Shown here: piece by piece, positions 793 to 59,332 of the stretch | How positions within the stretch are numbered: the first letter of the stretch is position 1 | Layout of the letters: each line of letters begins with the position of its first letter | Position numbers and translations under genes: made by a program | The notes under the pieces: generated by a model | Seen by the model: only the letters and a program-made list of their open reading frames with translations | What the model was told of the DNA's origin: nothing | The model's database searches: none | DNA from: an uncultured Pseudomonadales bacterium | GTDB taxonomy: Bacteria; Patescibacteriota; Microgenomatia; UBA1400; PJMF01 | Assembly: GCA_964457085.1 (NCBI GenBank) | Contig: CAYWDM010000002.1 | Span: 116,037 to 180,036, forward strand | DNA length: 64,000 bases | Direction of reading: 5' to 3'

Positions 793-1479
793 ATGTGGGT
801 CACATCAAAACTTAAATTATCTGTAATTGTTCCAATCTTCAATGAAGAGAAAACCGTGGTAAAGGTGTTGCAAAAGCTTCTTGCTTCGACCGAAGTTTTT
901 GAAGTGGTGGTGGTTGATGATGGCTCAACAGATGGTTCACTTAAAAAGATACAACAGCTCAAACACAAAAAACTTCGAGTTTTTTCAAAAGCTAATGGTG
1001 GCAAAGGTAGTGCGGTACGGTACGGTTTAGAAAAAGTTACTGGTGACTATGTGTTAATCCAAGATTCCGATTTGGAATACGATCCTGATGATATTCCAGT
1101 GTTGGTTGAGCCAGTGAAAAAAGGTAAAGCTGAGGTTATATATGGTTCAAGATTTTTAGGTTCACACTCGAATTTGCTGTTTTGGCATCGAGTTGGAAAT
1201 AGCTTTTTAAATTTCGTGGTCAATATCATGTATGACACTACACTGTCGGACATGGAAACTTGTTACAAATTATTGCCCACAGAATTATTCCGATCACTTG
1301 ACATTAAAGCGAATAAATTTGACATGGAACCTGAGATTACCTGCAAAATGCTGCGTAAAAAAGTCAAGATTTATGAAGTGCCCATTACCTATGTAGGGAG
1401 AGACTTCACTGAAGGCAAAAAAATTACTTGGCGCGATGGATTTGGAGCGCTGTGGATGATTTTTAAACTGAGATTTTAA
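793..1479 (+). CDS. Family-2 glycosyltransferase (DPM1/GtrB-like polyprenol-phosphate sugar synthase).
   Basis: N-terminal VIVPIFNEEKTV, the DDGSTDGS (DXD-like) motif, DSDLEYDPDD and a conserved GT-A core. Confidence 0.85.
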   Translation: MWVTSKLKLSVIVPIFNEEKTVVKVLQKLLASTEVFEVVVVDDGSTDGSLKKIQQLKHKKLRVFSKANGGKGSAVRYGLEKVTGDYVLIQDSDLEYDPDDIPVLVEPVKKGKAEVIYGSRFLGSHSNLLFWHRVGNSFLNFVVNIMYDTTLSDMETCYKLLPTELFRSLDIKANKFDMEPEITCKMLRKKVKIYEVPITYVGRDFTEGKKITWRDGFGALWMIFKLRF

Positions 1480-3839: not shown

Positions 3840-3889
3840 CTCTCGAGTTACGAATCAATCTGTATCGGGTTATTATTTTTGAGCATTTT

Positions 3890-4756
3890 ATGCCAACAAA
3901 GCGCGATTTTTACGAAGTATTAGGCTTGTCAAAAACATCTAGCGAAAGCGAGATTAAGTCTGCGTATCGCAAGATGGCTTTGAAGTTTCATCCTGATCGT
4001 AATAAAGCCGCCGACGCTGAGACCAAATTTAAAGAGATTAATGAAGCGTATCAAGTGCTTTCTGATAAACAGAAACGCTCGACCTATGATCAATTTGGTC
4101 ACGCTGCATTTGATCCAGCTAGTGGTATGGGTGGTGCAGGTGGTGGAAATCCATTCAGCGGTGGTTTTGGCGGTGGTGGACCATTCACTTGGTCATATAG
4201 TAGCTCTGGTGCAAATCAGAACTCTGATTTTGGTGATCCTTTTGATATTTTTGAATCGATTTTTGGTGGCGGTGGTTTTGGTGGGGGCGGACAGCGACGA
4301 CCACGGTATGGTTTGCAATTAACTTTTATGGAGGCAGCCAAAGGTGTCACTAAAGAAGTCTCGATTGATGGCAAGAAGCAAGTGATTAAAGTGCCAGCCG
4401 GAGCTAATGATGGCACCAGACTGAAATTTGATGATTTTGATGTCACCATTGATGTGGCACCACACGATCGATTCAAACGTGATGGTTATGACGTTTTTGT
4501 TGATCAGGAAATTAGTTTTGCGGTAGCAGCACTTGGTGGTCAAATTGAGGTACCGACACTCGATGGCAAATTGAAGATGAAAGTGCGTGCTGGTACACCG
4601 TCGCACATGTTGGTAAGACTGCGAGATGAGGGAATTCAGCGTTTGCAGAGTCGTGGTAAAGGCGATTTATACGTGCGTTTAATTGTTAAAGTGCCCCAGT
4701 CTTTAAGTCGAGAGCAAAAGCAGCTGCTTGAGGAATTGAAAAAGCTGGAATCATAG
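3890..4756 (+). CDS. dnaJ: DnaJ-domain co-chaperone (CbpA/DnaJ-like) with a G/F-rich region and no zinc-finger CxxCxGxG repeats.
   Basis: J domain (DFYEVLGLSKTSSESEIKSAYRKMALKFHPDRNK) with the HPD motif, a long Gly/Phe region, and a C-terminal substrate-binding domain. Confidence 0.9.
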   Translation: MPTKRDFYEVLGLSKTSSESEIKSAYRKMALKFHPDRNKAADAETKFKEINEAYQVLSDKQKRSTYDQFGHAAFDPASGMGGAGGGNPFSGGFGGGGPFTWSYSSSGANQNSDFGDPFDIFESIFGGGGFGGGGQRRPRYGLQLTFMEAAKGVTKEVSIDGKKQVIKVPAGANDGTRLKFDDFDVTIDVAPHDRFKRDGYDVFVDQEISFAVAALGGQIEVPTLDGKLKMKVRAGTPSHMLVRLRDEGIQRLQSRGKGDLYVRLIVKVPQSLSREQKQLLEELKKLES

Positions 4757-13100: not shown

Positions 13101-13283
13101 AAAGGCTATGCACTCAACACTCAAGCAATCAATTTGAATTCAATAAAATCAGAGCCATTCAAGCAAATGCCAGGTGGTTCAGAAGATTCTGAACAGGTAG
13201 TGCTCAAAAAGAAACAAGAGCTTGAACAGAGACAGCAGAAACTAGTGATGGCAGCAACGCCTTCACCTCAGCAGTCATCGTAA
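10140..13283 (+). CDS. Large hypothetical protein (1047 aa), helical and charged, no recognisable catalytic motif.
   Basis: Uninterrupted 3.1-kb ORF with consistent composition and no signal peptide. Confidence 0.6.
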   Translation: MPNENIPFLKEIQKGYLPNAKNAESANAVFDLVADEAKSVMEMGEQAEVVSSAARQAINEVLKGEQVWTTVLESVQKKLMDGVGNMDSLRELRALQVFVKENLPILSQGRLEKSGTGEGARRERAEIVLEVQNMVVSSVAEKLADTKHLPPRITFVQSWQTAIPDLKRRLGVAGKTELSKEIDNLLDASTPSGNDALLQVNRMFSEAKITEFVARYEVKSEADSESATTMSPQGEVYAAFLQQQLESFDAGQHQIINTQVTQLEEQFLNDIFAGIWQRNGKLSKTLDELPDDRRGNRAISEIVKMSVEGGNLGDYLLALGQLSNEQRRIAFQNSYDAWNKVPRTAEEKSEAAKILLVAFDRETDGETNYAVEQLQKSAGNPDVVQLRAESKAELTKEAMGELTSDLFTIDLTNPSYRLYVPELVSKLIDKGVDTRRLAAAQLAKQEIFQTTITDILEKHMPKDVTQAQQFIDESRFALKNAQKLEYYRQGKDGFVIRKDLGERDNQVLERRKQQMFLVGFVRHLLNQPQHAPEAVTDMRQYFADAEKFGVTAKILIDIHNSVSTAIVAFNKKIEATSVGAYHRESAAIDFTDHMTRVMKIPPPLGVHMLTMTEAKGLENYGWGGEDRPSTGNVGIYTDNAEDSRDQVIAGYAVKDVLKRAQMKVDKSGIVPLLNTGAELDSFESRLARHESLLKPGFGGMYEGQQWHNVDRFDNLIKNDPYVDLQTKAAESLVEPDEQALKAAMEKLALTGKKGDELSSAVDSWGYHCENDYSRLGFAEKGLIRLGGGSSTLASEKHRYEQSAEQLTGEKFNLLESADRLRLRNTLEARKKAAQKKLATEIATKIKGISAKVVSGESMAAEYVKMMLKDPEMPSLEVVDYSQNYRTLKVIAADDINTVQTDPRLEVIYRTFQKAREAYGKRVYSKVNNLVANRAYGTETQAIEDAVGELRLKLGYTEARESMGYSREPSPPKVDLTPISRAIEPVLKKGYALNTQAINLNSIKSEPFKQMPGGSEDSEQVVLKKKQELEQRQQKLVMAATPSPQQSS

Positions 13284-14154: not shown

Positions 14155-17100
14155 ATGATTATTTTGGAAATGATATTGGAAGCGACAACAGTGACCGGAG
14201 CTAGGCAACATGGATTTGACGATCTTGTTGTGGCTCCTGAGGATCCCGTATCAGTACTCAGAGATTTGAATTGTGGTGAGGTGAGAACAAAAGATACCTC
14301 ATACCTAAAAAGCCAAAATGAAGTTTCGGATATGGTTAAGGCCACAAAAGAACTAAAGTGGCCAGGTTTTTGGTACGAATTACTGCAGGGAGCTTGGGAT
14401 TATAACGACTGGAGTAAAGGTAGTCCTCAAATTACCATTACTTTTGCTGGTGGTGAATCAATTTCACTGGCTCAGTTTGTCAGTGAGTGTGCTGCAGCTG
14501 GTGGTTTAAAAAAACTCAAACGTGGTCGAATTCAAGAAGTGAGTGTCAGCAATAACATTCGCGGAGATACTGGACTGCGACCTGTAAATGTGGTGTTGAC
14601 TGATCACGATGAAAAGGACGGTAAAAAACCACTGGGAACACATGGGCGAGGACTAAAAATTGCCAGTACTTGTGTTTTTGCTGGCGAATTGGCTAAAGCG
14701 ATTTCATATGAGTCATGGGTGCCAGAAATGGGTATGTGGTACGGTGAGGCCGGCATGCATCGGGATGAAGATGACCCAAAAGCTCCAGAAAATTTTCAAA
14801 TTAAATACAAACGAAATAAGGAATTGCAGACAGATAGAACTGTAATTAGAGTAACAGAGCCTGCAGAGGATTTGGTAGAAGCACTAATTTCATTTCAAGA
14901 TTGGTTTTTACCAGTCAATGGCAACTACCGTTTCCAAAGGATGGAGGCACAATCTGCAGATATGGTGCCTAATCGAGCTACGATTTTTGCCAACAAAAAA
15001 CACGCTCAAGAACCCCACGATGCTGCGGTTACTCCTTCAGAGCTGAGGTGGACGTATGGGCAAAATAAACTGGATGAGGCCGATGGTGTGGAACCACCTA
15101 GAGTCGAGATTCTATCGCGGGAATTATTGCCAACTGCACCAAATCCTATTAATTTTGTGTTTATTGATGGTTTGAGGGTGGGAGTGCCGGGAGCTACATT
15201 TTGTCAAATCTATGCTTTTTGGGGCTGGGGCAAAGGGACTAGTCATGGATACAATCCTGGTCGATCAAATGACTCGCTTAAAATGACCGGTGATATTGAC
15301 GATTTGTTGGCAAAAACATTAACGCTTAACACTAATGCAGCAGTTTTTTTGGAAATCATGGTTGCGAATTTAAATGGCCACAAAACGTATGAGGGTACAG
15401 AAGTGTCATATCTAGATGCTCTCGCTGGAAATGCAGCATCAAAGTCAGCACTGACACATGCATGGGAAGAATTAAGGATGGCAACTAATTCACCTGCAGA
15501 TGTTTTGATTACAGACTCTAAAGACGATTATGATCGGGCAAAGCGTGAGCAAAAAGTCGCTTTATTTTTGCCAAAACGATGGACAGCAATTTTGTGTGAG
15601 ATTATTCCAGGTTTGACTACTGCAGGCACGGTTTTTTCTCAAGAATTTGAAGAGGTTCAAGCGAAAGAGAGAGCCACTAGGCAGGCTATGGAACTGCAAC
15701 AGCGTGAAATGGAGGCTCGGGTTGTGAGAGAGAAGGAAGAGGCAATTGAACAATATAGAAAGAGCCGAGGTATTGTTAAGGAGGCATCAAATACTGGTGA
15801 AGTCATTAAAATGGCAAGACCAGAAAACAAACAAATAACGTTGCAACTGGCTTTATTGCATCTGGTGCATGCGTTGGCTATGGATGGTGGCAGAGTTGTA
15901 TCAGGCGATCCAAAGAAATTAATTCTCGAGATGCGAGCTGGTGGTTTTGATCAGTTGCCCAATAATACCAATTCGCTTGATGTACTTGGTGAATTTCTCA
16001 AATTGTACCTGGTGGTGTTTGGTAGTGACGCAATCGCAGAGTTAAAAATCGTGAGACAAGAAAAGGGAGTGTATTTCAATTTTGCCAGAAGTAAAAAAGC
16101 TGATTCTTTTGGCAACTACACCATTGAGGTACAGCAGGGTGAACTGGAACTACCACATGACAGTTGGGTGCAGTTAGAGTTGTCATTACCAGACACAACT
16201 GATGATAACGCATCCACTGGCGAAGCACGCCAACCACTAACTAGTGTTGATGGAGAAGATCTAGATTGTGCTGGATACCATGATGTGCTGACTCAGGCGA
16301 TTCGCGCCATCAGTAATTTGGATGGAACAGTTGATAGAAATGTCTATATGGCGAGTGAATATTTTGCACTGTATCCAGCAGCTGAAGCCAGAATGCGACT
16401 CCGCATGGAGATCGAAAAAACACAGCTTGAAATGAAGCTGTTATTCGATGAACAAAATAAATTGCGAGTGAGGTCTGGACTCAAGCCGTTGCCATATCCA
16501 GATGAATTAAAAACAACACGACCTCGGAAGGTGGGGCTTGGTGCTGGTATGGGACTACCGCCTGCGGAAGCCGACCTAACTCCAGCAGAAGAAGAGGAAA
16601 AGACTAAACAAAATCGTGAACATTCTGCAGCTCGAAAGTTACGTCAAAAAATGTCCAACATCTTGACGGGCAATGAAATTTTAGATGATGTTCCAGTCGA
16701 CTCTGAGATTATTAGTATGATTCACCCAGATAGCGTTCCGGGATTGAGTGAAAAAGGCGATGTGGAACGTATGCAGATGGTGCTGGCTGAATTACCCATT
16801 GGTGAGCGGATGAGAGCAACATTGGCTGAAAAGATGCGTGAGATTCTCAATCGTGTGGCAGTGCCAGACTTCTCACTCAGTTCAGGAGAATGGTTGCATC
16901 TGCGCGGATATTTAATTGATCACATTAATCCCGCTCATTCAATCACAACTACAGATAATTATGATGCTCTACCAGCCCTACCATTCACTGAGATGCAGGC
17001 AAATCCCTGTCTCAGATTTAATAAGAAAATTATTGCAGGACTATATTCAATTCCATGCCCACCTGGATTTCATCCGGTGGCAGTCAGTCATCCTGGCGGT

Positions 17101-18747
17101 CCAAATATTGGTTTACATTTCTCTGGCAATTTAGAGAAAAATGTTTTTGCAATGAATCTTGAAAAAGACGTGCCTCCGGGACTGAGTTTTTATTTTGAGC
17201 CGACCAAAACAGTTGATCGTTCATTACCCGATCAGCGTGAATGTGAAGTCACAGCTGATGAATCTAGTTTGGCAGAGCACTGGTTTAATTTGATTACCTC
17301 AATTCGTGAGTCATCACTAACTGATAAGCAAAAAGTTGATGTCATTATTCGTGCTTGGGTCAAGGCTTTTAACTACAGCAAAGAACAAAAAGCATTTGAC
17401 GAATATACAGATAGTCGAGGAATTAAAAAGAAATTTACTACAGATATCATTAACAAATCGATTGGCAACTGTGGGTATGCAACCCAAGGTATTTTAGGGT
17501 TACTTACTTTAATTGGGATTCCGACCAGAGATGTGGCGGCATTTCTGCATGATGGCGGTGGCAATTTTTCGCGTCAAGGAAATTATCACGGTATGGTGCA
17601 AGTCTATATTGATAACCGTTGGGTGTTGATCGAACCGCAAAGCGGATATGTTCAGGAAGGGTATGAAACTGAAGAACTACCCACAACTGTTCGTACTGAA
17701 TTTGAAAATTTACTCGGTGAGATTCCCAGAAGGTACTTAGAGTCAGCTCGAACTGTTGCGGCACTGCCTGATGTAGTTGGAGAAGATGAGAACGAAATAC
17801 CAACCATGGCTACTGGGCTTCGTGAGAGCTTGCGGGCTTTACTGCCATTTAGCTTACCAACATTTTCAAATCCATTTGCACTACTTCGTGACCGATGGAC
17901 TGAATTCATGCAGCGACGTCGAGAATCAAGCGGACGTAATCAGCACGAGGCAACAGTAATAAATCCCGCTGAGTTGCTCCGCGACTTAGCACAGGCAACA
18001 AATGCACTACAGCTAACTGAAGGAAAATTACCAGAGGGAATAACTCAATCTGAACCATTTACTGGTGCAGATATGGGACAGCAATTTTTGATTGAGCTGA
18101 GCACACAAATTACAGAGATGATGGCTGATTCCCCAACAACCATTCTTAATCCAGATGCTCCAATTGCCGAAAGATTAGAAGTAATGGAAGAGCAGTTATT
18201 GCATTACACTCGTTTGTTGCAAACTGTGCGAACAGCACAAATGTATGAGATGGTAACCGATGATCAAGTTGAGGCGATAAAGAATACTGTTGATAGACTG
18301 GGTCAGTTTGTGGTGCAGCTGCGAAATGAACAATCTGAGTTTGAGGATGCACAGCTACGAAAAGAATTATTCAGGGCAAATTTGAAAAAATCATTATTGC
18401 GGCTGAGTGCAGTTACAGCCGGAGCAACCATTGGAGCATTGTTGGCTCCACATATGAATGAGATCTTGTCACTGGGAGCTACTCAATTAGCTGCAACCAA
18501 ACAGCTGGTGGAATCACTGGCATCATCAGGACCAAATCTTCCCTCACCATCTGAAATTGCAACCAGTACCCAAGATTTTGCTCAAGAACAACTCCGAAAA
18601 ATCGAGTCCGTACCACAAAAACCAATTACTGAAACAATGCGACAGTATTGGCTGCTCGCATTAGTGGCAACAATACTAGCTGGCACACATACAGGAGCAT
18701 ATATGTTGGGTAAGACGAAAGAATCACCCGCAGAAATAGAGGATTAA
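14155..18747 (+). CDS. Giant protein B1 (1530 aa) with a transglutaminase-like (papain-fold) Cys/His core near the C-terminus and C-terminal hydrophobic segments.
   Basis: Conserved with B2 over the N-terminus (KDTSYLKSQNEV...WPGFWYELLQGAWDYNDW; IRGDTGLRP; GTHGRGLKIAS; YAFWGWGKG...NPGRSNDSLK). Cys motif IGNCGYATQG, then YHGMVQVYIDNRWVLIEPQ, and a Glu/Lys/Arg coiled central region. Confidence 0.7.
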   Translation: MIILEMILEATTVTGARQHGFDDLVVAPEDPVSVLRDLNCGEVRTKDTSYLKSQNEVSDMVKATKELKWPGFWYELLQGAWDYNDWSKGSPQITITFAGGESISLAQFVSECAAAGGLKKLKRGRIQEVSVSNNIRGDTGLRPVNVVLTDHDEKDGKKPLGTHGRGLKIASTCVFAGELAKAISYESWVPEMGMWYGEAGMHRDEDDPKAPENFQIKYKRNKELQTDRTVIRVTEPAEDLVEALISFQDWFLPVNGNYRFQRMEAQSADMVPNRATIFANKKHAQEPHDAAVTPSELRWTYGQNKLDEADGVEPPRVEILSRELLPTAPNPINFVFIDGLRVGVPGATFCQIYAFWGWGKGTSHGYNPGRSNDSLKMTGDIDDLLAKTLTLNTNAAVFLEIMVANLNGHKTYEGTEVSYLDALAGNAASKSALTHAWEELRMATNSPADVLITDSKDDYDRAKREQKVALFLPKRWTAILCEIIPGLTTAGTVFSQEFEEVQAKERATRQAMELQQREMEARVVREKEEAIEQYRKSRGIVKEASNTGEVIKMARPENKQITLQLALLHLVHALAMDGGRVVSGDPKKLILEMRAGGFDQLPNNTNSLDVLGEFLKLYLVVFGSDAIAELKIVRQEKGVYFNFARSKKADSFGNYTIEVQQGELELPHDSWVQLELSLPDTTDDNASTGEARQPLTSVDGEDLDCAGYHDVLTQAIRAISNLDGTVDRNVYMASEYFALYPAAEARMRLRMEIEKTQLEMKLLFDEQNKLRVRSGLKPLPYPDELKTTRPRKVGLGAGMGLPPAEADLTPAEEEEKTKQNREHSAARKLRQKMSNILTGNEILDDVPVDSEIISMIHPDSVPGLSEKGDVERMQMVLAELPIGERMRATLAEKMREILNRVAVPDFSLSSGEWLHLRGYLIDHINPAHSITTTDNYDALPALPFTEMQANPCLRFNKKIIAGLYSIPCPPGFHPVAVSHPGGPNIGLHFSGNLEKNVFAMNLEKDVPPGLSFYFEPTKTVDRSLPDQRECEVTADESSLAEHWFNLITSIRESSLTDKQKVDVIIRAWVKAFNYSKEQKAFDEYTDSRGIKKKFTTDIINKSIGNCGYATQGILGLLTLIGIPTRDVAAFLHDGGGNFSRQGNYHGMVQVYIDNRWVLIEPQSGYVQEGYETEELPTTVRTEFENLLGEIPRRYLESARTVAALPDVVGEDENEIPTMATGLRESLRALLPFSLPTFSNPFALLRDRWTEFMQRRRESSGRNQHEATVINPAELLRDLAQATNALQLTEGKLPEGITQSEPFTGADMGQQFLIELSTQITEMMADSPTTILNPDAPIAERLEVMEEQLLHYTRLLQTVRTAQMYEMVTDDQVEAIKNTVDRLGQFVVQLRNEQSEFEDAQLRKELFRANLKKSLLRLSAVTAGATIGALLAPHMNEILSLGATQLAATKQLVESLASSGPNLPSPSEIATSTQDFAQEQLRKIESVPQKPITETMRQYWLLALVATILAGTHTGAYMLGKTKESPAEIED

Positions 18748-20065: not shown

Positions 20066-23000
20066 ATGACATTAATGGATGTCCTTGGTTTTGGTGGCGT
20101 CATGTTTCGTGGCTCAAAGAAGTCAGGTGTGGATGGTGTGCCCCCCATGATTCCAGTTGAGATGGGTGACCCGCAGGCAGAGCTACGCAATCTCGGCCCA
20201 GAATCAAAGGTTAAGGGTACTTCATATAACGATCAGCAGAACGAAGTACGAGAGATGATTGATGCTACCAAAGAAAAGCGTTGGCCAGGTTTTTGGTATG
20301 AATTACTGCAGGGTGCATATGAGTACAACGATTGGAATCGGGGATTACCACGGATTTTAGTATATTATGCCGGAGTGGCTGAACCAGTGAGCTTGACTCG
20401 GTTTGTCTCTGATCGTGGTCGATTTTTCCATCGCAAAGTTGAAAGAGTTGAAATCAAAAACTATATTCGAGGCGATACTGGACTACGACCGCATAATGTC
20501 GCCGCAACTCTTCATGAAGAAAAAGATAATCAAGTTGGTTTGAGTGCTCATGGACGTGGGATGAAAATTTCATCCACTGCAGCCGCAGGTCATTTGGCGA
20601 AAGGCATCACTTTTGAGTCATGCGTACCTGGTATTGGTGCTTGGTTTGGTCGTGGTGAGATTGCACGGGATGAGGAGGATCCACGACCTTCAGATACATT
20701 CCAACTGCGGTATAACAATAATCCTGCATTGAGAGCAAAAGAGACCATTTTTACCGTACTTGAACCAAATAGTGCTGCTTTGAAAGCCTTGTCTGATTTA
20801 CCCAAATGGTTTTTACCCACGAATCCCGCATATCCAAGCTATCGTCTTGATGCAGAGCCAACCGCAACACGACCCAATAAAACTACTATATATGCTAACC
20901 AAAAGTTTGTGGGAGCTGAGAATAGTCTCGCTTTCTCTGAAAGAGAATTAAATTTATTTGGAAATAGTGGATTAAAATCTGAAGCTAATGCAGTTGAACC
21001 TGCTCGGGTTGAAATATTACCGGATAACTTGACTGGAAAGCGACGGGGCAAAATCGACTACGTATATGTTGATGGATTGCGAGTGGCAGTTGAGGGTGCC
21101 CAGTTTGCTAATGTGTATGCCTTTTGGGGGTGGGGCAATGGTGATCATGGTTTTAATCCGCGTCGTTCCAATGATTCCTTGAAGTTGGCAAATGCAATGA
21201 ATTTTTTACTAGGTGCCACGTTGTGTCGTTGTCCAAATCCTGAGGTATTTTTATCCATTCTACGTTCAAATTTGAATGATAAGGCCACCTTTGAAGGGGG
21301 TACCGGCATTTTTGAAAGACATTGGTACGACCTTTCAAAAAGTATGACTGGTGAAGCAAAAGCTGCCATGAGTGCTGCTTGGGGTCAGTTGACTACCGAA
21401 ATTGGTGTCAAAGGCAGAGTGTATGTCACATCTGAAAAAGAATCAAAGCAACGAGCCAAGCGAGAGAAAAAACCAACCATTTTGATGCAGCAGAACTGTT
21501 TAGCAATGTTGATGGTATCGAGATCTGATCTAAGGACTGTTGAGTCGGTGTTTGAAGATGAGGCCAAGGATGCAGAGGCACGTGAGGCTCAATTGAAATG
21601 GGAGAAAGATAAATTAATTCGTGAAAAAGAAGAACTGAAAAAAGAGGCTAAAAATAGAGACGAATATCTAAAGTTAGAGGCGGCAAAGGAAGCCGAGGCT
21701 AACGCCAAAAAGCGAACTGGTATTAAAGAGTATGCCGAAAGTACTGGAGAATTTCTCCGAGTGGCAGCACCCGATGATCCATCAATTGCAGTTGAGATGG
21801 CAAAAATAAATTTAATTAATTTATTTATGCTCAACCAAGGCTCTTTTAAACTAGAAAAAATTGGCCTTTTTGCTAAAACCGGGAAATTGGTAATTGATTT
21901 GCAGATGCCTGAGCTGGTGACGCTGCCGAGAAATGTTAAAGACATGGGACCGGTTGGTGATTTTGTGTTAAATTTTTTAGCCGCTGGTTCCACGACTGCT
22001 ACAGCCGAGGTGAGGTATGTGCGCAATTCAGAGGGGGTCTATTTTCATTTAGGTCGGTCGATGATTGACGAAAGGATTGATAAGTTTGGTAACTTCAGGA
22101 TTTTTGTGAATCAGGGTTCACTAGACATGACCGACAAACATCTAGTGAGAATCACACTCGATTTAGGAGAAAATGATGAGACAAGATTTAACGGTGAAGT
22201 GGCAAAGATATTTGAGTCATTGCAAAAGGCTGATGGCACTCCTGATGTAGATCGGTATCTGGAAAGTCAGTATTACCATGATTTTCCACCAGGTGAAGAT
22301 AGGCTTAAAGAAAAACGCAAAATGGAAGCGGAGCTACAGCAATACGAAAAGCACTTAGCTGAAGAGAATAGACGTCGACGTCGTGTTGGCCTGCCGCCAT
22401 TACCGAGCAAATACAATGCCAAATCAAGATTTGGTGGGCATGACGAGTTTGAAGATGAACCTGCATCTGGAGGAAGAGCCAAACTCCCCGCACAACGTGA
22501 TCGCAAAACCTTAGATCGTATTAGACGTTCTGAAGAACGAGCGATCGGTGATTCTGGTATCGATATCCAAGATGCGATCTTATCGCTGATGCACCCAGAT
22601 GCCAGGCCAGGAATTACTACGCATGGCACTGAGAAGCGACGGCGCATGGTACAAGAATCACTGTCTGGAAACGAGCGGCTTAGAAATGAAGCTGCAGCTC
22701 GGGCTAGGGAGATTTTTAAGCGACAATTGATCCCAGATTGTTCGATGTCGTCTAGTGAGTTTAGTCGGGTGAGACCATACCTTATTGACCATATCGACGA
22801 TGAAAACTTTGGCACTGACGATTACGACATCTTGAGTGGTTTTGAGTTTGGCCAGTTGAGTAATTTGCCCAAATTGAGGTTCAATAAACCAATTGGTTCC
22901 GGACTAGGCTCACTCCCTTGCCCTCCTGGGTACAGGCCAGTTGGGTATTATCACCCAGAGGGCGAGATTAAAGGACTGCATTTTTCAGGAAATTTTGAAC

Positions 23001-24136
23001 GCAATGTTTTTGCCATCTCATTACCTCGTGGTATTGATAAAGGCCTAACGGTCTACTATCGAAAGTTGAAATCATTTGCTGATACCACAGAGCCGACGGA
23101 AGAAAATCGTCGTTGCAGAGTGAAGGTGGAAACATTAAATGGTCCATGGTCTGAGCTGTTGATTGCATTACGCGATAGTCCTTTAAATGAAAAACAAAAA
23201 GCCGACATTATCATTCGAGCTTGGTCTCAGCGGGGCTTTATCTATGATAAGTCAGAGGCAGGACATCGTAAGTACGACCCGTATGGCTCGATTGATAGCC
23301 CTGAGTTTATGAGTGCTATTCTTAATTTTGGAAATGGTACTTGTGGGCATGCGGAAAAAGGTTGGCAGGGTGCGGGGACTGCTTGTAACTTGGCGGTTCG
23401 AAAAGTTACCAGTTATCTTGCTGGTGCTAATGGCGGTTTCTCGATGCGTGAAAATTTACATGGCTTGATACAGGTCTACATTAAAGATAGGTGGGTATTG
23501 GTAGAGCCACAAGTCGGATATATAGATCCTGGATATGAGTTAGAAGAAATACCAGCTCCATATCGTGAGAAATTTACTCGTTTGATTGAGGCGATACCTA
23601 ACGCAAAAGTTACTTCCCCAGAGCGTTTATCAGCGTTGCCAGATGTGCTTTCTGAAAACACAGAAAATTACACCAGCATGATGGAAGAATTAAGAATGAA
23701 ATATGATGAATATTTTGGTGATGGAGAACAGCTCACGCTCAGTGACTTGATGGTAGCTGTGCGTTCCGGTTTTGTCCAATTTGACAAACGCAAACTAGCA
23801 CTCTCACTTGCTAAATATTCAGCTCTAACCTTAGCTGGGGCATTTGCAGTACATGAAATTACACCAATGATTCCGAAGTTAGCTGAAATGACATTACAGC
23901 TTTTGGACTCAATTCCTCCAGAAAAATTAAGAAATATAGCAATTGGAACCATAGTGTCCATAGTCGCAATATCATATTTAGGTACCGGGAAGATTGGATT
24001 TGAGATCGGAAAATATATTGAAAGTCGTCGGTTAAGTTTAGCTTTTGCTTCCGATGAAACAGCAGCACTTCCAGATAGTTCAAGTGATGGTGGTGAAGAG
24101 AGCCCTTTGCCTGCGATACTACCAGTAGTAGACTAG
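20066..24136 (+). CDS. Giant protein B2 (1356 aa), paralog of B1 with a transglutaminase-like Cys/His core and C-terminal transmembrane-like helices.
   Basis: Shares the motifs WPGFWYELLQGAYEYNDW, IRGDTGLRPHNV, SAHGRGMKISS, YAFWGWGNGDHGFNPRRSNDSLK, GNGTCGHAEKGW and LHGLIQVYIKDRWVLVEPQ with B1. Confidence 0.7.
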   Translation: MTLMDVLGFGGVMFRGSKKSGVDGVPPMIPVEMGDPQAELRNLGPESKVKGTSYNDQQNEVREMIDATKEKRWPGFWYELLQGAYEYNDWNRGLPRILVYYAGVAEPVSLTRFVSDRGRFFHRKVERVEIKNYIRGDTGLRPHNVAATLHEEKDNQVGLSAHGRGMKISSTAAAGHLAKGITFESCVPGIGAWFGRGEIARDEEDPRPSDTFQLRYNNNPALRAKETIFTVLEPNSAALKALSDLPKWFLPTNPAYPSYRLDAEPTATRPNKTTIYANQKFVGAENSLAFSERELNLFGNSGLKSEANAVEPARVEILPDNLTGKRRGKIDYVYVDGLRVAVEGAQFANVYAFWGWGNGDHGFNPRRSNDSLKLANAMNFLLGATLCRCPNPEVFLSILRSNLNDKATFEGGTGIFERHWYDLSKSMTGEAKAAMSAAWGQLTTEIGVKGRVYVTSEKESKQRAKREKKPTILMQQNCLAMLMVSRSDLRTVESVFEDEAKDAEAREAQLKWEKDKLIREKEELKKEAKNRDEYLKLEAAKEAEANAKKRTGIKEYAESTGEFLRVAAPDDPSIAVEMAKINLINLFMLNQGSFKLEKIGLFAKTGKLVIDLQMPELVTLPRNVKDMGPVGDFVLNFLAAGSTTATAEVRYVRNSEGVYFHLGRSMIDERIDKFGNFRIFVNQGSLDMTDKHLVRITLDLGENDETRFNGEVAKIFESLQKADGTPDVDRYLESQYYHDFPPGEDRLKEKRKMEAELQQYEKHLAEENRRRRRVGLPPLPSKYNAKSRFGGHDEFEDEPASGGRAKLPAQRDRKTLDRIRRSEERAIGDSGIDIQDAILSLMHPDARPGITTHGTEKRRRMVQESLSGNERLRNEAAARAREIFKRQLIPDCSMSSSEFSRVRPYLIDHIDDENFGTDDYDILSGFEFGQLSNLPKLRFNKPIGSGLGSLPCPPGYRPVGYYHPEGEIKGLHFSGNFERNVFAISLPRGIDKGLTVYYRKLKSFADTTEPTEENRRCRVKVETLNGPWSELLIALRDSPLNEKQKADIIIRAWSQRGFIYDKSEAGHRKYDPYGSIDSPEFMSAILNFGNGTCGHAEKGWQGAGTACNLAVRKVTSYLAGANGGFSMRENLHGLIQVYIKDRWVLVEPQVGYIDPGYELEEIPAPYREKFTRLIEAIPNAKVTSPERLSALPDVLSENTENYTSMMEELRMKYDEYFGDGEQLTLSDLMVAVRSGFVQFDKRKLALSLAKYSALTLAGAFAVHEITPMIPKLAEMTLQLLDSIPPEKLRNIAIGTIVSIVAISYLGTGKIGFEIGKYIESRRLSLAFASDETAALPDSSSDGGEESPLPAILPVVD

Positions 24137-42352: not shown

Positions 42353-42556
42353 ATGGCAGATACCTATAGCTACACAAACGCCAAGGGTCAGGCATATTAC
42401 TTGCACACACGTGAGGTCACTCTCAAAAATGGTCGTGTGCAACGTATTTACTTTTTTGCTCGCGACATTCGCAGTGGCTCTTTGAGTGCTGTGCCCGCAG
42501 GCTACAAAGTAATTGAGACCAAGCGTACTGGCATGCCAGTACTCAAAAAAGCCTAA
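42353..42556 (+). CDS. Small conserved-looking hypothetical protein (67 aa).
   Basis: A GGAGAAGA RBS precedes the ATG; followed by a strong terminator. Confidence 0.5.
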   Translation: MADTYSYTNAKGQAYYLHTREVTLKNGRVQRIYFFARDIRSGSLSAVPAGYKVIETKRTGMPVLKKA

Positions 42557-42590
42557 TATTGGCTTTAGCTACACTAAAATTGTAACGAAG

Positions 42591-42615
42591 ACCCCAGTTT
42601 AGACTGGGGTTTTTG
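42591..42615. terminator. Bidirectional rho-independent terminator between convergent genes.
   Basis: ACCCCAGU-UUAG-ACUGGGGU followed by a U run. Confidence 0.75.
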
Positions 42616-42672
42616 GTTATTTTGCCAAAGTATGGTGAGTGGATTCAGCCAACTGAACAGACCACAATAGTC

Positions 42673-44499
42673 TTATTGGAAATCAACTGTTTTGTATTGT
42701 AAGTGATCTGGTGAGAGTTCAAATATTTTACTGTTAAATTGATTATGATAATCCCAGTTTTCGATTAGTTTCTCATTTAGACAAGCTCCTCTTTCGACAA
42801 AAACCCTTGAAACTAAGTTGCGATTGATGTGGCTAAAGTTGCAGATTGAATGGTAATCCTCACCAAATGGCAAAACTAGATCGAAATTGTTTGAATAAAC
42901 GGCATGTGTGTAAATTTTTTTGTGTAGAGTTTCATCAACAATAAGGCTAGCAAAATGTATGTTTCGATGAATAAGTACTGAGCTATCTACGTGCGAGACA
43001 ATCCACTGATAACTATCAGATTTGGACAGTTTGCCATTAGATATTCTCAGCCAATTATAGTTTTCTGACCAAGATGTTGTAAGAAATATAATTGTTAGTA
43101 TCATCAGTGCGACTCTAAAGATCTTTTCACTTACTTTATTATCTTGGCTTACTAGCTGAAGACCTACCCATAAAAATGAAATTGAACCGAATGATAAAAA
43201 TTTGTGTGAAAAATATCTCCAGGTTAGGAAGAAAGTACCAGTAATTATTATTAATTGTGTTAGAGTCAGCAAATAGATTGCTTGGTGCTTTTGTCGATAT
43301 TCCTTATTCATACTGTTTTTGACTAGAACTCCAAACAATGTTATGAATAACAATAGGGTTGGTATGACCTTCCAGGAGTTGTCATTAATTATTTTTTCCC
43401 AATATACTGAGTCTAGGTATGCTGGATTAAAATCATTGGGAATGGCACCTATAATTTGAGAGATTCTCTGAGCAGTCAGTGTATATTTGTTTTGACCGTA
43501 GATTGCGACTTCTTTTTCAATACTGGTGATATTAGGGTAATAAAATCCCAAAAGAAGAATCGTTACGAATATAAGTTGCTGCAATGTTAGCCAAGATTTT
43601 CGTTTAAATAACCTATATGCGTAATAAATCAAAAACGGTGCTAATAGTACTAGCGAATAGTAATATACGAGTCCTGTAATAAAAACTAACAAAGGCAGAA
43701 GAATCAACTTTGTGTCAAATGAGGGTAAAAATAATAATAGCATGACGAGAAATAATGATATCTCTTGCGATATAGAATCCATGCCAACAATAACGTGTAA
43801 CAATGGGTAACTGAAGCAAGCAATAATTGGTAGCCATGACCATTTTATTTTTGGCAAAAACTGTGTTGCTAGAGTGAGTGCAAGCAACAATGCATATGTA
43901 AAGAAGAATTTATGAATGCTGACAAAATGTGGCTGTGTCAGCATTACATCTTCAAACCCGTGTAAAAAAATTAACAAATAATGAGCACCGAGCGGATATC
44001 TATAATTCTCTGTAACTCGTCTGAGCGTCCCAAAAAAATGATCGTTTAAGTTGGAAGGACGTTCACTCAATGAAAAATCATTTATATATCGAGCTATTCT
44101 TTCATGGTTGTGATAATCACCATTCCCACCAAATGAAATAATTGTATTGTTGCTAATCTCGGCAAAACAAATAAAGAAAAACATGCTGACATATATAAGT
44201 AGATGTAACCAAATTTGTTTGGTGATTATTGGCTTGAGGTAAATGAGGCAAATTGCACCGAGTATTGACAATACTATATAAAATTCTGTTGTAAGAATTG
44301 TATTTAAGCTCACGAAATAACTCAGAGGATAAATCAGTAATAGGACTGCAATCCACCCAACGGAAGAAAAAAGTATGATGTCATTGATTGAAGCTTTTTC
44401 TATTTTTTTTCTTACGATTAGGGAATATCCACAAAAAGAAATTGAGCCCAAGAAAAGTATTAAAACAGTGAAGATGAAAAAACTAACTAAATAAAACAT
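42673..44499 (-). CDS. Polytopic membrane glycosyltransferase-like protein (GT-C-like, 608 aa) in an AT-rich islet.
   Basis: At least 12 hydrophobic helices plus a C-terminal soluble domain; markedly lower GC than the flanks; paired with a GT2. Confidence 0.6.
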   Translation of the reverse strand: MFYLVSFFIFTVLILFLGSISFCGYSLIVRKKIEKASINDIILFSSVGWIAVLLLIYPLSYFVSLNTILTTEFYIVLSILGAICLIYLKPIITKQIWLHLLIYVSMFFFICFAEISNNTIISFGGNGDYHNHERIARYINDFSLSERPSNLNDHFFGTLRRVTENYRYPLGAHYLLIFLHGFEDVMLTQPHFVSIHKFFFTYALLLALTLATQFLPKIKWSWLPIIACFSYPLLHVIVGMDSISQEISLFLVMLLLFLPSFDTKLILLPLLVFITGLVYYYSLVLLAPFLIYYAYRLFKRKSWLTLQQLIFVTILLLGFYYPNITSIEKEVAIYGQNKYTLTAQRISQIIGAIPNDFNPAYLDSVYWEKIINDNSWKVIPTLLLFITLFGVLVKNSMNKEYRQKHQAIYLLTLTQLIIITGTFFLTWRYFSHKFLSFGSISFLWVGLQLVSQDNKVSEKIFRVALMILTIIFLTTSWSENYNWLRISNGKLSKSDSYQWIVSHVDSSVLIHRNIHFASLIVDETLHKKIYTHAVYSNNFDLVLPFGEDYHSICNFSHINRNLVSRVFVERGACLNEKLIENWDYHNQFNSKIFELSPDHLQYKTVDFQ

Positions 44500-44505
44500 A
44501 ATAAG

Positions 44506-45210
44506 TTATTCACGACTAAATCTTGATTTTAAAATATAGGCCATTATTTTAAGTCCATCGAATGGACTGCAGCCATTTTTGGGCATACTTTCAGGTAACG
44601 AAATAATTGGCATTTCAATTAAATTAATATTTTTTTTGCATATTTTTACTAATATTTCTGCCTCTAAGTTATAACCAGATGAGTTTAAGTCCAATTTTTG
44701 AAAACTCTGCTTGGTAAACGCTTTTAGACCACAAAGAGGGTCTCTAAAAAATCTGCCATTCAAGAGAAAAAATTCGACGATAATGCAGATTTTTCCGAGT
44801 ATTTTTGAACTTGGCTCTGACGAATTGCCATACCGACTACCTGTGATAATTGCATCACTGTTGGAGTCAAGTATCTGATTGAAGCTGTGCAGACAGGAAA
44901 CTTGGTGTTGACCATCAGCATCAAACAAAATTAATTTACTTGCGTGCAAATTTTTAATTGCGTGTTGGCATCCAATTTTAATGGCTTGACTTTTGCCCAG
45001 ATTTTTATTGAGTTTAATAACATGAGGGGTGAATCTTGAGGCAATTTTTGCAGTCTGATCTGTAGAACCGTCATCAACAACCAAACAGTTAATGTGTAGT
45101 TTCTTTATTGCAACCAATAGTGGTTTAATTCGTGGGGCTTCGTTGTATGCAGGTATCACAACAACGAGTGTGCCAGTGGTTGTATAGTGTTTCTTTTCAT
45201 TCATGGGCAA
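44506..45210 (-). CDS. Family-2 glycosyltransferase.
   Basis: VVIPAYNEAPRI, VVDDGSTDQT, LFDADGQH. Confidence 0.85.
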   Translation of the reverse strand: MPMNEKKHYTTTGTLVVVIPAYNEAPRIKPLLVAIKKLHINCLVVDDGSTDQTAKIASRFTPHVIKLNKNLGKSQAIKIGCQHAIKNLHASKLILFDADGQHQVSCLHSFNQILDSNSDAIITGSRYGNSSEPSSKILGKICIIVEFFLLNGRFFRDPLCGLKAFTKQSFQKLDLNSSGYNLEAEILVKICKKNINLIEMPIISLPESMPKNGCSPFDGLKIMAYILKSRFSRE

Positions 45211-45396
45211 CGTAGCACAGATTGAGGCTTACTTGAACTTGTCGAATCATGTTACTTCTATATCAATATATTACATGGATGCTATATTTTTTTTACTCAA
45301 AATACAAGGGTACCTGATTGATATTCCAAGTTTTTGAGTTTGGGATATTTATGTAGCCTTACGTTTTAATGTGTTTTTTTCCGTTACAATACCAAT

Positions 45397-45768
45397 ATGA
45401 CAACATCCCTAGCAAAACAATCAAAAATTAGTACGCCTCCAACACTATTATCGCCGACCAAGCAAAGAATCATAGAACGTTTAAAAACTATCTTGGATCC
45501 TGAAATCGATGTTGATATTGTTAGTTTAGGTTTGATTTATGACGCAATGGTTACTACTGATAAAAAAGTGTTTGTGCGAATGACCCTAACCTCTCCAGGC
45601 TGTCCATTGGCAGGCTCGATTGAATCATTAATCAGAATCTCAATGAATGATTTGGTAGCTGATACCGACGGAGATGTGATACTTGAAATAACCTTTGATC
45701 CTCCATGGACACCTGATATGATGAGTGAGGAAGTTCGACTTGAGTACGGAATTCCATTGGTGAATTAA
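45397..45768 (+). CDS. DUF59/MIP18-family Fe-S assembly protein (SufT-like).
   Basis: IDVDIVSLGLIYD...LTSPGCPLAGSI motif. Confidence 0.75.
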   Translation: MTTSLAKQSKISTPPTLLSPTKQRIIERLKTILDPEIDVDIVSLGLIYDAMVTTDKKVFVRMTLTSPGCPLAGSIESLIRISMNDLVADTDGDVILEITFDPPWTPDMMSEEVRLEYGIPLVN

Positions 45769-51568: not shown

Positions 51569-52327
51569 ATGGTGATGTTCCTCGTGTTAATTCCGATGTT
51601 GGTGGTGATTAGTTCAATTCTCATCTATCAATTCAATGGTCGAAAAGAATTTGTTAAGTTTGATTTAGTGCAGTTTTTATATGCTTTCTTTTTTGTGCCA
51701 GTGATGTTTATTTGGTTAAAAAGTTTATTGTTTTATCTACTTCGCAGAGAATTAGATCTGCATCTCTCAGTAACTGACATTTTTGCAGCAGACACCGCTT
51801 TTTCGGTAATGTTCTTATTTTTATATGCATTTATTGTGATTCACTCACTGACGAAAAGCTTTGAATTAAAGCGAGAACATGATCCACTGTATGACTTGAT
51901 GAAAGATTCGGAATATTTTCATCTTTGGATTTCGCACATCGTGTTTAATTTTGGCATGACTTTGATTGTGAGTGTGCTGTCCGTCACAAATTTATTTATA
52001 CCTATCACTACTACAATTAATCACCCATTTTTTTACATGCTACTTAGTTTTGGTTTGATTTTTGGAATTGCATTATTCGTTTTTACCTGGCTGTCTAATT
52101 TTTCAGCCAACTTCGTGCGAGTAATGAAGATTTTTTATGGTGTGATCTTTACCATACACGTAGGTTTATATATTACAATTTACCCAGGATTTGATAATCG
52201 ATATGGTATATTCTGGGTGACGGTTACAGCACTGAGCTCATTCATGTTTTGTTCATTATTTTTTGAACGGTTTGAAAGGCCAATGAACTGGATTCAACGA
52301 TTACATTACAAATTCTTTAAATCCTGA
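51569..52327 (+). CDS. Hypothetical polytopic membrane protein.
   Basis: Six to seven hydrophobic helices. Confidence 0.5.
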   Translation: MVMFLVLIPMLVVISSILIYQFNGRKEFVKFDLVQFLYAFFFVPVMFIWLKSLLFYLLRRELDLHLSVTDIFAADTAFSVMFLFLYAFIVIHSLTKSFELKREHDPLYDLMKDSEYFHLWISHIVFNFGMTLIVSVLSVTNLFIPITTTINHPFFYMLLSFGLIFGIALFVFTWLSNFSANFVRVMKIFYGVIFTIHVGLYITIYPGFDNRYGIFWVTVTALSSFMFCSLFFERFERPMNWIQRLHYKFFKS

Positions 52328-58076: not shown

Positions 58077-58084
58077 TTTAAATG

Positions 58085-58516
58085 TGGAGATGAGGGGCAA
58101 TGAACCCCTGTCCGTAAACAAGATCAAGAGTGAGCACTACAGACATAGTCAATCTTTGGTATGAATTAACTGGTGGAAATGACAGACCATGCTAATTCAC
58201 CCATAGCAGATTTGCTTAGCCCACCTCAGGCTATGAACTGTGAGGGCTGACACACGAACTGGGTTTTCACTAGTCAATTTCCGCTCGTGAAAGAACTCTG
58301 ACTAATGTCCCTTACAAGTTGCAATTAAGCAACGGCGTAAGATGGAGCCATCAAACTGGCGACGGTGTCTACGGCTGAGCCGAAGAAACTTGCCACTTTG
58401 CTGGTTAGACTGCGAAATGAATTGGCAGTTATTGTTTTTGACTCTGTTTTACACCCGTGAGTCAAGGGTGGTCTGCACTTGCTAATGAGCTGTCACGTCG
58501 ATGCAATTACATCCCC
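58085..58516 (-). ncRNA. ssrA: Transfer-messenger RNA (tmRNA, SsrA).
   Basis: The 5' GGGGAUG pairs with the 3' CAUCUCC, giving a G3:U wobble as in tRNA-Ala, followed by discriminator A. T-arm AGGGG-UUCAUUG-CCCCU. The 5' AUCGACG resembles the tmRNA D-analog consensus. The in-frame ORF ends ...APSYAVA-UAA at 58325-58327. There is no protein ORF on either strand across roughly 560 bp. Confidence 0.8.
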
Positions 58517-59255: not shown

Positions 59256-59332
59256 TGGTGGACAATACAGGACTCGAACCTGTGACCTCACGAATGTGAA
59301 TCGTGCGCTCTAACCAGCTGAGCTAATTGTCC
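59256..59332 (-). tRNA. tRNA-Val (anticodon CAC), CCA encoded.
   Basis: Manual fold: acceptor GGACAAU/AUUGUCC, D-arm GCUC-AGCUGGUUA-GAGC, anticodon stem CACGA/UCGUG with loop UUCACAU, T-arm ACAGG-UUCGAGU-CCUGU. Confidence 0.85.

Follow-up and report, generated by a model that had tools for sequence, protein, structure and literature searches.

A two-gene islet encoding a putative polyprenyl-phosphate sugar synthase and a GT-C-like membrane protein: accessory by synteny, AT-rich through amino-acid composition

Glycosyltransferase modules of the GT-A/GT-C kind add sugars to bacterial envelopes, and recognition by phages, hosts or the immune system often depends on them. In the phage-borne gtrABC cassettes, a family 2 glycosyltransferase (GT2), GtrB, is combined with the flippase GtrA and a serotype-specific GT-C-like transferase, and these cassettes are mobile, strain-variable and often AT-rich. 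The CsbB/YfhO system (with the GtcA flippase) and the GtlA/GtlB system glycosylate teichoic acids in Firmicutes (PMC5836110, PMC8035078). In Mycobacterium tuberculosis, the short GT2 enzyme PpgS (Rv3631) makes polyprenyl-P-GalNAc, which is used by the GT-C enzyme Rv3779 on arabinogalactan (PMC3485146), and in the GacI/GacJ/GacK/GacL system of Streptococcus pyogenes a cytoplasmic GT-A enzyme lacking transmembrane (TM) helices makes C55-P-GlcNAc (C55-P, undecaprenyl phosphate), from which the GT-C enzyme GacL transfers the sugar to the wall polysaccharide (PMC8035078). Multi-component transmembrane glycosylation systems include a cytoplasmic GT-A variant, and their GT-C partners can be almost unrecognisable by sequence (PMC8035078). 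Here, we describe an AT-rich islet of two minus-strand genes, one for a GT2 and one for a 608-aa membrane protein, at positions 42673 to 45210 of a 64-kb stretch of DNA (hereafter the window, to which all positions refer). With a probability of roughly 0.6, this islet is a two-gene operon for a GT-A/GT-C transmembrane glycosylation module that is accessory and owes its AT-richness to amino-acid composition. Such a module would be of a known kind; what is new is a sequence-orphan GT-C-like family that lies outside every profile library and has six sequences among 1.84 billion representatives.

The islet consists of two adjacent open reading frames (ORFs), 42673-44499 (608 aa) and 44506-45210 (234 aa when read from a TTG). 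In public gene calls the GT2 starts at the ATG at 45204, which gives 232 aa, and the TTG at 45210 lies upstream in frame. The spacer between the two genes is 6 nt, which supports an operon arrangement. A preliminary description of this DNA had placed both ORFs correctly on the minus strand, and the AT run that it quoted is found at 42722-42749. The features of the two genes are as follows.

44506 to 45204, minus strand: GT2 glycosyltransferase, DPMS/PpgS-like, putative polyprenyl-phosphate sugar synthase (PF00535, NCBIfam and PDB 5mlz matches)
42673 to 44499, minus strand: 608-aa polytopic membrane protein with a GT-C-like fold at the level of a predicted model, proposed extracytoplasmic transferase of a lipid-linked sugar
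43927 to 44151, minus strand: conserved long loop of the 608-aa protein, codons 117-191, candidate active-site loop (alignments and positive-inside model)
42676 to 43065, minus strand: C-terminal soluble alpha/beta domain of the 608-aa protein, codons 479-608, candidate acceptor-binding domain (invariant columns, predicted secondary structure and topology)

The identity of the GT2 was confirmed by its match to PF00535 over residues 17-140 (E = 1.3e-21; 77.7 bits against a cut-off of 23.3). Its best NCBIfam matches are PpgS (1.8e-28, 99.5 bits, nearly full length), AglJ (6e-25, 88.2 bits) and a dolichyl-phosphate hexose transferase (1.2e-10, 40.7 bits), and its only sequence match in the PDB is the DPMS of Pyrococcus furiosus (5mlz; E = 1e-12, residues 13-202 against 23-219). 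In the alignment with the catalytic domain of 5mlz, FDADGQH pairs with MDADLQH, the DAD motifs being aligned, and VVDDGSTD pairs with VVDDDSPD. Judged by these sequence matches, the protein is closest to the polyprenyl-phosphate sugar synthases (PpgS, AglJ and the Pyrococcus DPMS) and is putatively one of them, and a polyprenol-phosphate-sugar route, which had been suggested before, is still its best reading. Beyond one marginal segment it has no TM helix, and it is more like the short PpgS/GacI type than like GtrB/CsbB. Its named relatives come mostly from metagenome-assembled genomes of Patescibacteria/Candidate Phyla Radiation organisms.

Two side observations concern this protein and its relatives. 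Its cysteine frequency is about five times the window average (ratio 5.01). In addition, the gene for P0004, a protein 39% identical to the GT2 (L003:6733-8076), is flanked on both sides by DUF2304 genes and lies in a large glycan cluster with several further GT2 genes and a PMT_2-like GT-C. DUF2304 is, we take it, the GacJ-type family, and the P0004 locus shows a partner-dependent variant of the same synthase type.

The partner of the GT2 is a large membrane protein, as had been described, with about 14 hydrophobic segments, a number in keeping with the 7-13 or more TM helices of GT-C enzymes. The 608-aa protein gave no Pfam or NCBIfam match even at E <= 10, nor was one found for its homologs, and no match was found among PDB sequences, even with the family profile. 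A word-indexed search of 5.8 billion proteins with the protein or the family alignment returned the query alone; an exhaustive HMMER search of 1.84 billion representatives recovered five relatives, namely P0126 (37%), P0127 (30%), P0129 (28%) and two fragments. No family members were found in a scan of JGI metagenomes with a three-sequence alignment, and no relatives of the protein among known phages and plasmids. A link to PMT_2-like or YfhO-like proteins was unsupported (hhalign probability <1%), as was the idea that the N-terminal module is a fused GacJ, the hhalign probability against DUF2304 proteins being likewise <1%.

Several motifs are conserved within this small family. The 75-residue loop (codons 117-191) contains SFGxNxD128xxxH132(E) and YRYPxGAH173YLL, in which D128, H132 and H173 do not vary among the four full-length proteins, and D241 and E330 are further invariant acidic residues of the family. 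The C-terminal domain, of approximately 130 residues, contains the motifs NWLRxSN, (L)IHRNI, IYTN, VExGAC and HNxxN, and its columns N482, R485, I510, N513, Y530, T531, N586 and N589 are invariant across all six sequences. With moderate confidence, and with its fold taken from a model, we propose that the 608-aa protein is the first member of a very small, hitherto undescribed family of GT-C-like fold.

That fold was examined on an AlphaFold2 (AF2) model built from the six-sequence alignment. The structural matches of the model, with their scores, are ALG3 (11.7), ALG12 (11.7), AftA (11.6), ALG6 (11.2), Pmt4 (10.9), AglB (10.6), GPI-MT-I (10.4), STT3B (10.3), ALG9 (9.4), AftB (9.3), AftD (9.2), PglB (9.0), PimE (8.3), ArnT (7.9) and DPY19 (7.8). 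In a Foldseek search, the top five matches were all GT-C proteins (PglB in three entries, ALG12 and GPI-MT-I; probability 0.63-0.99), and the matches beyond them were noise, including transporters and WaaL (probability 0.06, TM-score 0.11). The model thus lends support to the earlier designation of the protein as GT-C-like. A reading as O-antigen ligase or polymerase was rejected on the low WaaL probability.

The predicted topology is in line with the fold. In the four full-length members, short loops rich in K and R alternate regularly, and in a model based on the positive-inside rule the C-terminal domain and the two long loops (117-191, the side of which is uncertain, and 327-374) face outward, so that D128, D241 and E330 would fall in outside loops. 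The general GT-C scheme starts with a large loop, after which come TMs joined by short loops, another large loop that precedes the final four TMs, and a C-terminal domain that faces outward (PMC6801728). The layout of the 608-aa protein matches this scheme, with large loops at 117-191 and 327-374, four TMs after the second of them and the C-terminal domain at 479-608. GT-C enzymes also carry an acidic motif of the DxD, DD or ExD type shortly after TM1, in the first extracytoplasmic loop (EL1) (PMC6801728, PMC8035078), and all five sequences have an acidic residue at 39/40, some 11-16 residues beyond TM1, although the positive-inside rule puts it inside. As hydrophobic EL1 helices are mispredicted as TMs in STT3/PglB (PMC6801728), a canonical topology is possible in which segments 2 and 3 are juxtamembrane EL1 helices.

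Genomic context links the two proteins repeatedly. In L002 (GCA_043754035.1), a GT2 that is 54% identical to that of the islet stands 6 nt ahead of an ORF truncated by the end of the contig. The 99 residues of this ORF give an ungapped alignment with the N-terminal part of the 608-aa protein (29% identity, E = 3e-10). In L021, a GT2, a methyltransferase and P0129 form one overlapping same-strand operon beside ALGX, MBOAT and GT4 genes. P0127 (L019) lies inside a polysaccharide cluster (WecG, PMT_2-like, Wzx-type and GDSL esterase genes), with no GT2 immediately adjacent, and P0126 (L018) directly follows tuf with no GT2 between. These four arrangements indicate that the association between a GT2 and the 608 family is frequent but not obligatory, and it fits the multi-component transmembrane glycosylation systems described previously (PMC8035078). 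The recurrence in L002 of the head-to-tail order and the identical 6-nt spacer, together with the same-strand GT2 two genes upstream of P0129 and the fact that the best family and structure matches of the GT2 are all polyprenol-phosphate glycosyltransferases, makes it highly improbable that the two genes are functionally unrelated neighbours, with the GT2 serving another pathway with a cytoplasmic or lipid-linked oligosaccharide acceptor, even though GT2 enzymes are functionally diverse, the scores of this one lie far below all equivalog cut-offs, and P0126 and P0127 have no GT2 immediately adjacent.

If the islet does encode a transmembrane glycosylation module, the soluble DPMS/PpgS-like GT2 would, by its sequence resemblance, move one sugar from a nucleotide-sugar to polyprenyl phosphate at the cytoplasmic face of the membrane. 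The lipid-linked sugar would then be flipped by a flippase encoded elsewhere, and the 608-aa protein, given its modelled fold, might transfer the sugar outside to an envelope glycan, lipid or protein acceptor. In this scheme we infer the lipid-phosphate-sugar intermediate, the outward transfer and the catalytic residues, and it is the adjacent DPMS-like GT2 that suggests a polyprenyl-phosphate-linked sugar donor for the 608-aa protein.

Several observations weigh against this scheme. By sequence, the 608-aa protein cannot be tied to any of the known GT-C families. Its model is only moderate (predicted TM-score 0.67, mean predicted local distance difference test, pLDDT, 64.5; TM core fair), with loops 113-166 (the key loop, pLDDT below 50) and 326-371 poorly modelled, and the absolute values from Foldseek are weak (E ~0.07, TM-scores 0.3-0.36), so that the GT-C claim is one of fold level and moderate strength. 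The post-TM1 acidic motif is ambiguous, the positive-inside rule putting 39/40 in the cytoplasm; the best-conserved loop, that of D128 (NxDxxxHE), comes after the fourth hydrophobic segment, and there is no conserved DxD pair. The GPI-transamidase subunits PIG-U and GAB1 are also among the GT-C-like fold matches, and to our knowledge neither of them transfers sugars. No flippase of the GtrA or Wzx type was found in the islet or among the window ORFs scanned, no small membrane anchor for the GT2 was found in the islet, and none of the ten window ORFs scanned for such partners (109-251 aa) encodes a GtrA or DUF2304 protein; such flippases can, however, be shared and unlinked (PMC8035078). The position of P0126, directly after tuf with no GT2 beside it, is a further point. 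Finally, the GT2 scores lie far below every equivalog cut-off (325-375 bits; for PpgS, 99.5 against 370), and what they demonstrate is therefore resemblance and not orthology, so that any assignment of the sugar, and even of the lipid acceptor, would be tentative.

Part of this evidence would also suit a 608-aa protein that is not a lipid-monophosphate-sugar transferase, but a polymerase or ligase that uses diphosphate-linked glycans, a flippase, or a GT-C-like protein without catalytic activity that serves the GT2 as scaffold or membrane anchor. No known catalytic motif was placed with confidence, the D128 loop is poorly modelled, PIG-U and GAB1 occur among the fold matches, and the TM-less GT2 has no small membrane partner such as those of PpgS (Rv3632) and GacI (GacJ); the isolated P0126 would fit as well. 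Nevertheless, all high-ranking fold matches are GT-C transferases, with WaaL as the sole ligase-type match and the transporters at noise level, and an anchor of the GacJ type is opposed by the hhalign result against DUF2304. Moreover, the invariant D, H and E residues in the predicted outside loops and the outward, conserved C-terminal domain fit an enzyme that acts on an external acceptor. We thus regard such other roles as unlikely and retain the GT-A/GT-C module as the preferred interpretation.

With regard to base composition, the islet is the stretch of lowest G + C content (GC) in the 64 kb. Its 2538 bp have a GC of 0.337, about 5 standard deviations (sd) below the 2.5-kb windows that do not overlap it (mean 0.420, sd 0.016, minimum 0.384), and the 1-kb bins at 43-45 kb have values of 0.335 and 0.329 compared with 0.416 for the whole window. 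The visible drop relative to the flanks, on which the preliminary description had based a probable lateral acquisition, is therefore real. It is absent, however, from the synonymous sites. GC at third codon positions (GC3) is 0.312 in the 608-aa gene (z -0.67) and 0.315 in the GT2 gene (z -0.60), compared with 0.341 +/- 0.043 in the other 54 ORFs, so that the dominance of codons ending in A or T, although true, is not distinctive. Likewise, GC at fourfold-degenerate sites (GC4) is 0.261 (z -0.86) and 0.341 (z +0.56), respectively, compared with 0.310 +/- 0.057 in the other ORFs. At first codon positions, the two genes have values of 0.381 (z -3.1) and 0.409 (z -2.5), compared with 0.530 in the other 54 ORFs. 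When the GC expected from the amino-acid sequence and the codon preferences of the window was compared with that observed over the codons scored, the two agreed closely, with 0.341 expected and 0.331 observed in the 608-aa gene (residual z -0.56) and 0.364 and 0.358 in the GT2 gene (residual z -0.27). Since synonymous-site GC and these residuals match the window, the GC trough is encoded at the amino-acid level.

The proteins of the islet are accordingly rich in F, Y, I, N, L and K and poor in G, A, R and P. The combined share of F, Y, M, I, N and K (FYMINK) is 0.367 in the 608-aa protein and 0.358 in the GT2, compared with 0.252 +/- 0.038 elsewhere in the window, and that of G, A, R and P is 0.128 and 0.185, compared with 0.229 elsewhere. 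The preliminary description had named, as the alternative to lateral acquisition, a shift due solely to TM-helix composition with synonymous-site GC equal to the flanks. Equality at synonymous sites is essentially what was observed, and the low GC is that expected from amino-acid composition. TM helices account for only part of it, as the GT2 is soluble (grand average of hydropathy, GRAVY, -0.05) and yet rich in I, N and K, and in FYMINK residues overall. Thus, with native synonymous composition and a low GC that comes from amino acids, base composition gives no evidence of recent import.

A natural control for this conclusion is provided by a core syntenic membrane gene in the same window, 51569-52327, the GC of which is 0.335 and that of its 74% identical sister-lineage counterpart 0.325. 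As it is as GC-poor as the islet and yet syntenic, low GC here tracks amino-acid composition. This plus-strand gene encodes a very hydrophobic protein of 252 aa (GRAVY 0.87, FYMINK 0.405) with no Pfam match. In the other GT2/membrane-protein pair of the window, at 793-3839, GC is 0.448 in the hydrophobic YfhO-like gene (1479-3839) and 0.377 in the core GT2 gene (793-1479). Genes for homologs of the 608 family, in genomes of 43-46% GC, are also GC-poorer than their own flanks (0.365 vs 0.448 and 0.354 vs 0.458). The AT-richness of the islet is what one would expect of a pair of envelope genes that evolve fast under weak constraint in a genome biased towards AT.

The accessory status of the islet is shown by synteny and not by composition. 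At least eight contigs of a sister lineage (gene tables of L008-L015) keep both flanks, at 57-96% amino-acid identity, and carry other genes at the islet site. The conserved left flank comprises Suf genes, Ddl, a Mur ligase, a hydrolase and genes for a 167-aa and a 67-aa protein, and the right flank an FeS-assembly (iron-sulfur cluster assembly) gene, RpiB and Rpe and extends to RNase J. The sister-lineage cargo at this site, of approximately 1.1 kb, consists of two small genes on the plus strand, which encode membrane proteins of 81 and 140 aa. In blastn comparisons with the sister lineage, the breakpoints are at 42593 and 45487. At the left junction, the hairpin and T-tract of the 67-aa gene are kept in four locus states, with compensatory changes in the stem, and divergence sets in immediately after 42617. 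The sharp junctions on both sides delimit a lineage-specific segment.

42618 to 45383, no strand: lineage-specific segment, comprising the islet and the upstream intergenic region (blastn breakpoints, junction alignments and gene tables)

Further states of the locus were also observed. A short contig, L007 (JGI 3300042114, 1183 bp), is 96% identical to 42353-42617 of the window and has the same terminator, followed by different genes: right after the terminator stands an IS200-type Y1 transposase (L007:335-781; PF01797, E = 5e-40) and then the C-terminus of a peptide release factor. As the contig is short, this junction is possibly an assembly chimera. L016 is a 92% variant of the sister type that diverges again further on. 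The spot evidently turns over its cargo, and the islet is a presence/absence polymorphism with conserved flanks, accessory by synteny, through either a gain in this lineage or a loss in the others; the claim of accessory status therefore holds. A search of contigs of GTDB representatives with the neighbouring Mur ligase as query gave no close relative, only a 26% match in Mucilaginibacter, which places the species or genus outside the representatives searched.

These data also bear on whether the islet was recently acquired from a lower-GC donor, its AT-richness being the signature of that donor. Its rank as the lowest-GC stretch of the 64 kb, the fact that the sister lineage lacks it at this site, the location of homologous genes at another chromosomal site, beside tuf in L002 and L018, and the presence of more distant homologs in genomes of 28-32% GC would all agree with such an event, as would the synonymous codon log-likelihood of the 608-aa gene, which is mildly low (z = -2.1), although two ordinary window genes score lower still. 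Nonetheless, GC3, GC4 and the observed-minus-expected GC all lie within the distribution of the window, and the genes for homologs in the 43-46% GC genomes are similarly depressed in GC. The segment contains no integrase, transposase or tRNA (the nearest tRNA or tmRNA being 13-14 kb away), a search for flanking direct repeats or attachment (att)-like sites at the islet returned chance-level matches only, and there are no phage or plasmid relatives. The gene that does look foreign is the 140-aa replacement in the sister lineage (L008:10792-11214, four TMs), the GC3 of which is 0.61 compared with 0.386 +/- 0.05, or about +4.5 sd; by the synonymous-site criterion it looks more foreign than the islet. 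Taken together, the synonymous composition of the islet is fully native, which speaks against a recent event at its site, and recent transfer from such a donor is very unlikely. As a side observation, the only Rfam matches in the window are the tmRNA (58082-58516, minus strand; RF00023, 82.5 bits) and a tRNA gene (59259-59332, minus strand), neither of which adjoins the islet.

The edges of the islet are formed by two further elements.

42586 to 42615, plus strand: intrinsic terminator, a hairpin followed by a T-tract, of the convergent gene for the 67-aa protein (42353-42556) (terminator scan and free energy)
45205 to 45396, no strand: intergenic region that separates the divergently oriented GT2 and FeS-assembly genes, presumed site of the operon promoter (scan, inspection and conservation)

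On the plus strand, the hairpin at 42586-42615 has a free energy of -20.6 kcal/mol (z = -5.1) and is followed by UUUUUGGUUAUUUU; it is a strong terminator for the 67-aa gene. In the minus direction, the corresponding value is -13.9 kcal/mol and the tail is CUUCGUUACAAUUUU, without a good U-tract, and the terminator scan gave a hit on the plus strand only. The hairpin may stop minus-strand transcription as well, less efficiently. The bidirectional terminator of the preliminary description is therefore borne out in part: the hairpin is real and has a proper T-tract for the plus-strand gene, but the minus direction is weaker and its U-tract poor. The 67-aa protein itself has no Pfam match and is 96% identical between lineages whose neighbouring proteins share only 57-90%, an unusual conservation for a small orphan.

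At the other edge, the divergent intergenic region (186-192 bp) is the obvious place for promoters, and the promoter of the islet operon is presumed to lie there; a promoter scan combined with inspection found no sigma-70-type promoter in 45211-45396 on either strand. Conservation with the sister lineage in this region is limited to approximately 15 nt before the ATG of the FeS-assembly gene (GTTACAATACCA..ATG). Within it, a conserved TACAAT stands about 9 nt upstream of this ATG (window 45383-45399), which points to a promoter from which the FeS-assembly mRNA would start with little or no leader.

The islet had been described as mirroring a second pair at the beginning of the window.

793 to 3839, plus strand: core pair of a GT2 (793-1479, 228 aa) and a 786-aa membrane protein, probably of the YfhO family (1479-3839)

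The GT2 of this pair matches PF00535 (E = 1.4e-33), and the architecture of the two pairs is the same. However, the two GT2 proteins are only 22% identical, and no similarity was detected between the membrane partners; a paralogous relationship of the 608-aa and 786-aa proteins was unsupported (hhalign probability <1%). The 786-aa protein has six metagenomic relatives with 45-57% identity. PF09586 (YfhO) is matched by 5/7 members of this family (best E = 3.9e-14), and because the window protein itself has no match, its YfhO membership rests on transitivity. Of the four loci with a called ORF in their upstream sequence (L022, L024, L025 and L027), three have a GT2 gene directly upstream of the 786-aa homolog, and in the fourth a short ORF separates the two. 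L022, L024 and L025 also have DnaK upstream, and DnaJ comes next in L022 and L024, as it does in the window. The comparison of the pairs indicates that the window has one core, vertically conserved pair and one accessory pair, which share an architecture but are not duplicates. The placement of the core pair beside chaperone genes, between dnaK and dnaJ in L022 and L024 and directly before dnaJ in the window (793-4756), is odd and conserved.

Elsewhere in the window, three very large plus-strand ORFs stand close together (10140-13283, 14155-18747 and 20066-24136), encoding proteins of 1047, 1530 and 1356 aa with no Pfam match except a transglutaminase core in the 1530-aa protein; these may be giant surface proteins.

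Two more general points follow from this locus. Fold-level searches can still find enzymes of this type in poorly studied lineages. In addition, the islet is a caution that amino-acid composition alone can make a GC trough of 5 sd, even in a soluble protein. If the organism is epibiotic and has a small genome, a variable surface-glycosylation cassette would, speculatively, be a candidate determinant of host or phage specificity. A bolder extension, which we consider quite doubtful, is that the 608 family is a previously unrecognised GT-C class with three extra N-terminal helices before the catalytic loop and D128/H132 in place of the post-TM1 DxD, the extra module standing in for the small membrane partner of TM-less synthases (PpgS, GacI) and the cassette being a self-sufficient, relocatable unit of surface variation in a small-genome (probably Patescibacteria-type) lineage.

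Compared with the known systems, the proposed islet module is like CsbB/YfhO and GtlA/GtlB in that a GT-A/GT2 enzyme makes a C55-P-sugar and a multi-span enzyme of GT-C fold transfers the sugar outside, the genes often being adjacent. The GT-C partners of these systems vary widely in sequence from one to another, and the window pair at 793-3839 is, judged by its relatives, of the YfhO type. In contrast, YfhO and PMT_2 models give no match to the 608-aa protein, no flippase of the GtrA type turned up in the window, and the islet GT2 has none of the C-terminal TM helices of the CsbB, GtlA and GtrB-type synthases. It also differs from the gtrABC cassettes, as the islet has no flippase gene, no phage or insertion sequence context and no phage or plasmid homolog, and its synonymous composition is native.

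The TM-less architecture of the GT2 is shared with GacI, although the islet has neither a GacJ-like activator with three TMs nor a Wzx-type flippase. PpgS, which is the best NCBIfam match of the GT2 without being its ortholog, has a small integral-membrane partner, Rv3632, of which the islet has no counterpart, and Rv3779 is not adjacent to ppgS, unlike the membrane partner in the islet. Eukaryotic and archaeal enzymes of the GT-C type that use dolichyl-phosphate (Dol-P) sugars (ALG3/9/12, ALG6, PMTs and PIG-M) are the top structural matches of the 608-aa model. Identity to the ALG, PMT and PIG-M enzymes is only 7-14%, the 608-aa protein adds a conserved C-terminal domain of approximately 130 aa, and its strongest conserved loop comes after four hydrophobic segments, compared with one in the Dol-P-sugar enzymes. 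Archaeal DPMS is in turn the only solved-structure relative of the GT2, and the logic proposed for the islet is like that of DPM1/DPMS and their GT-C partners, in which the sugar of a lipid monophosphate is used across the membrane.

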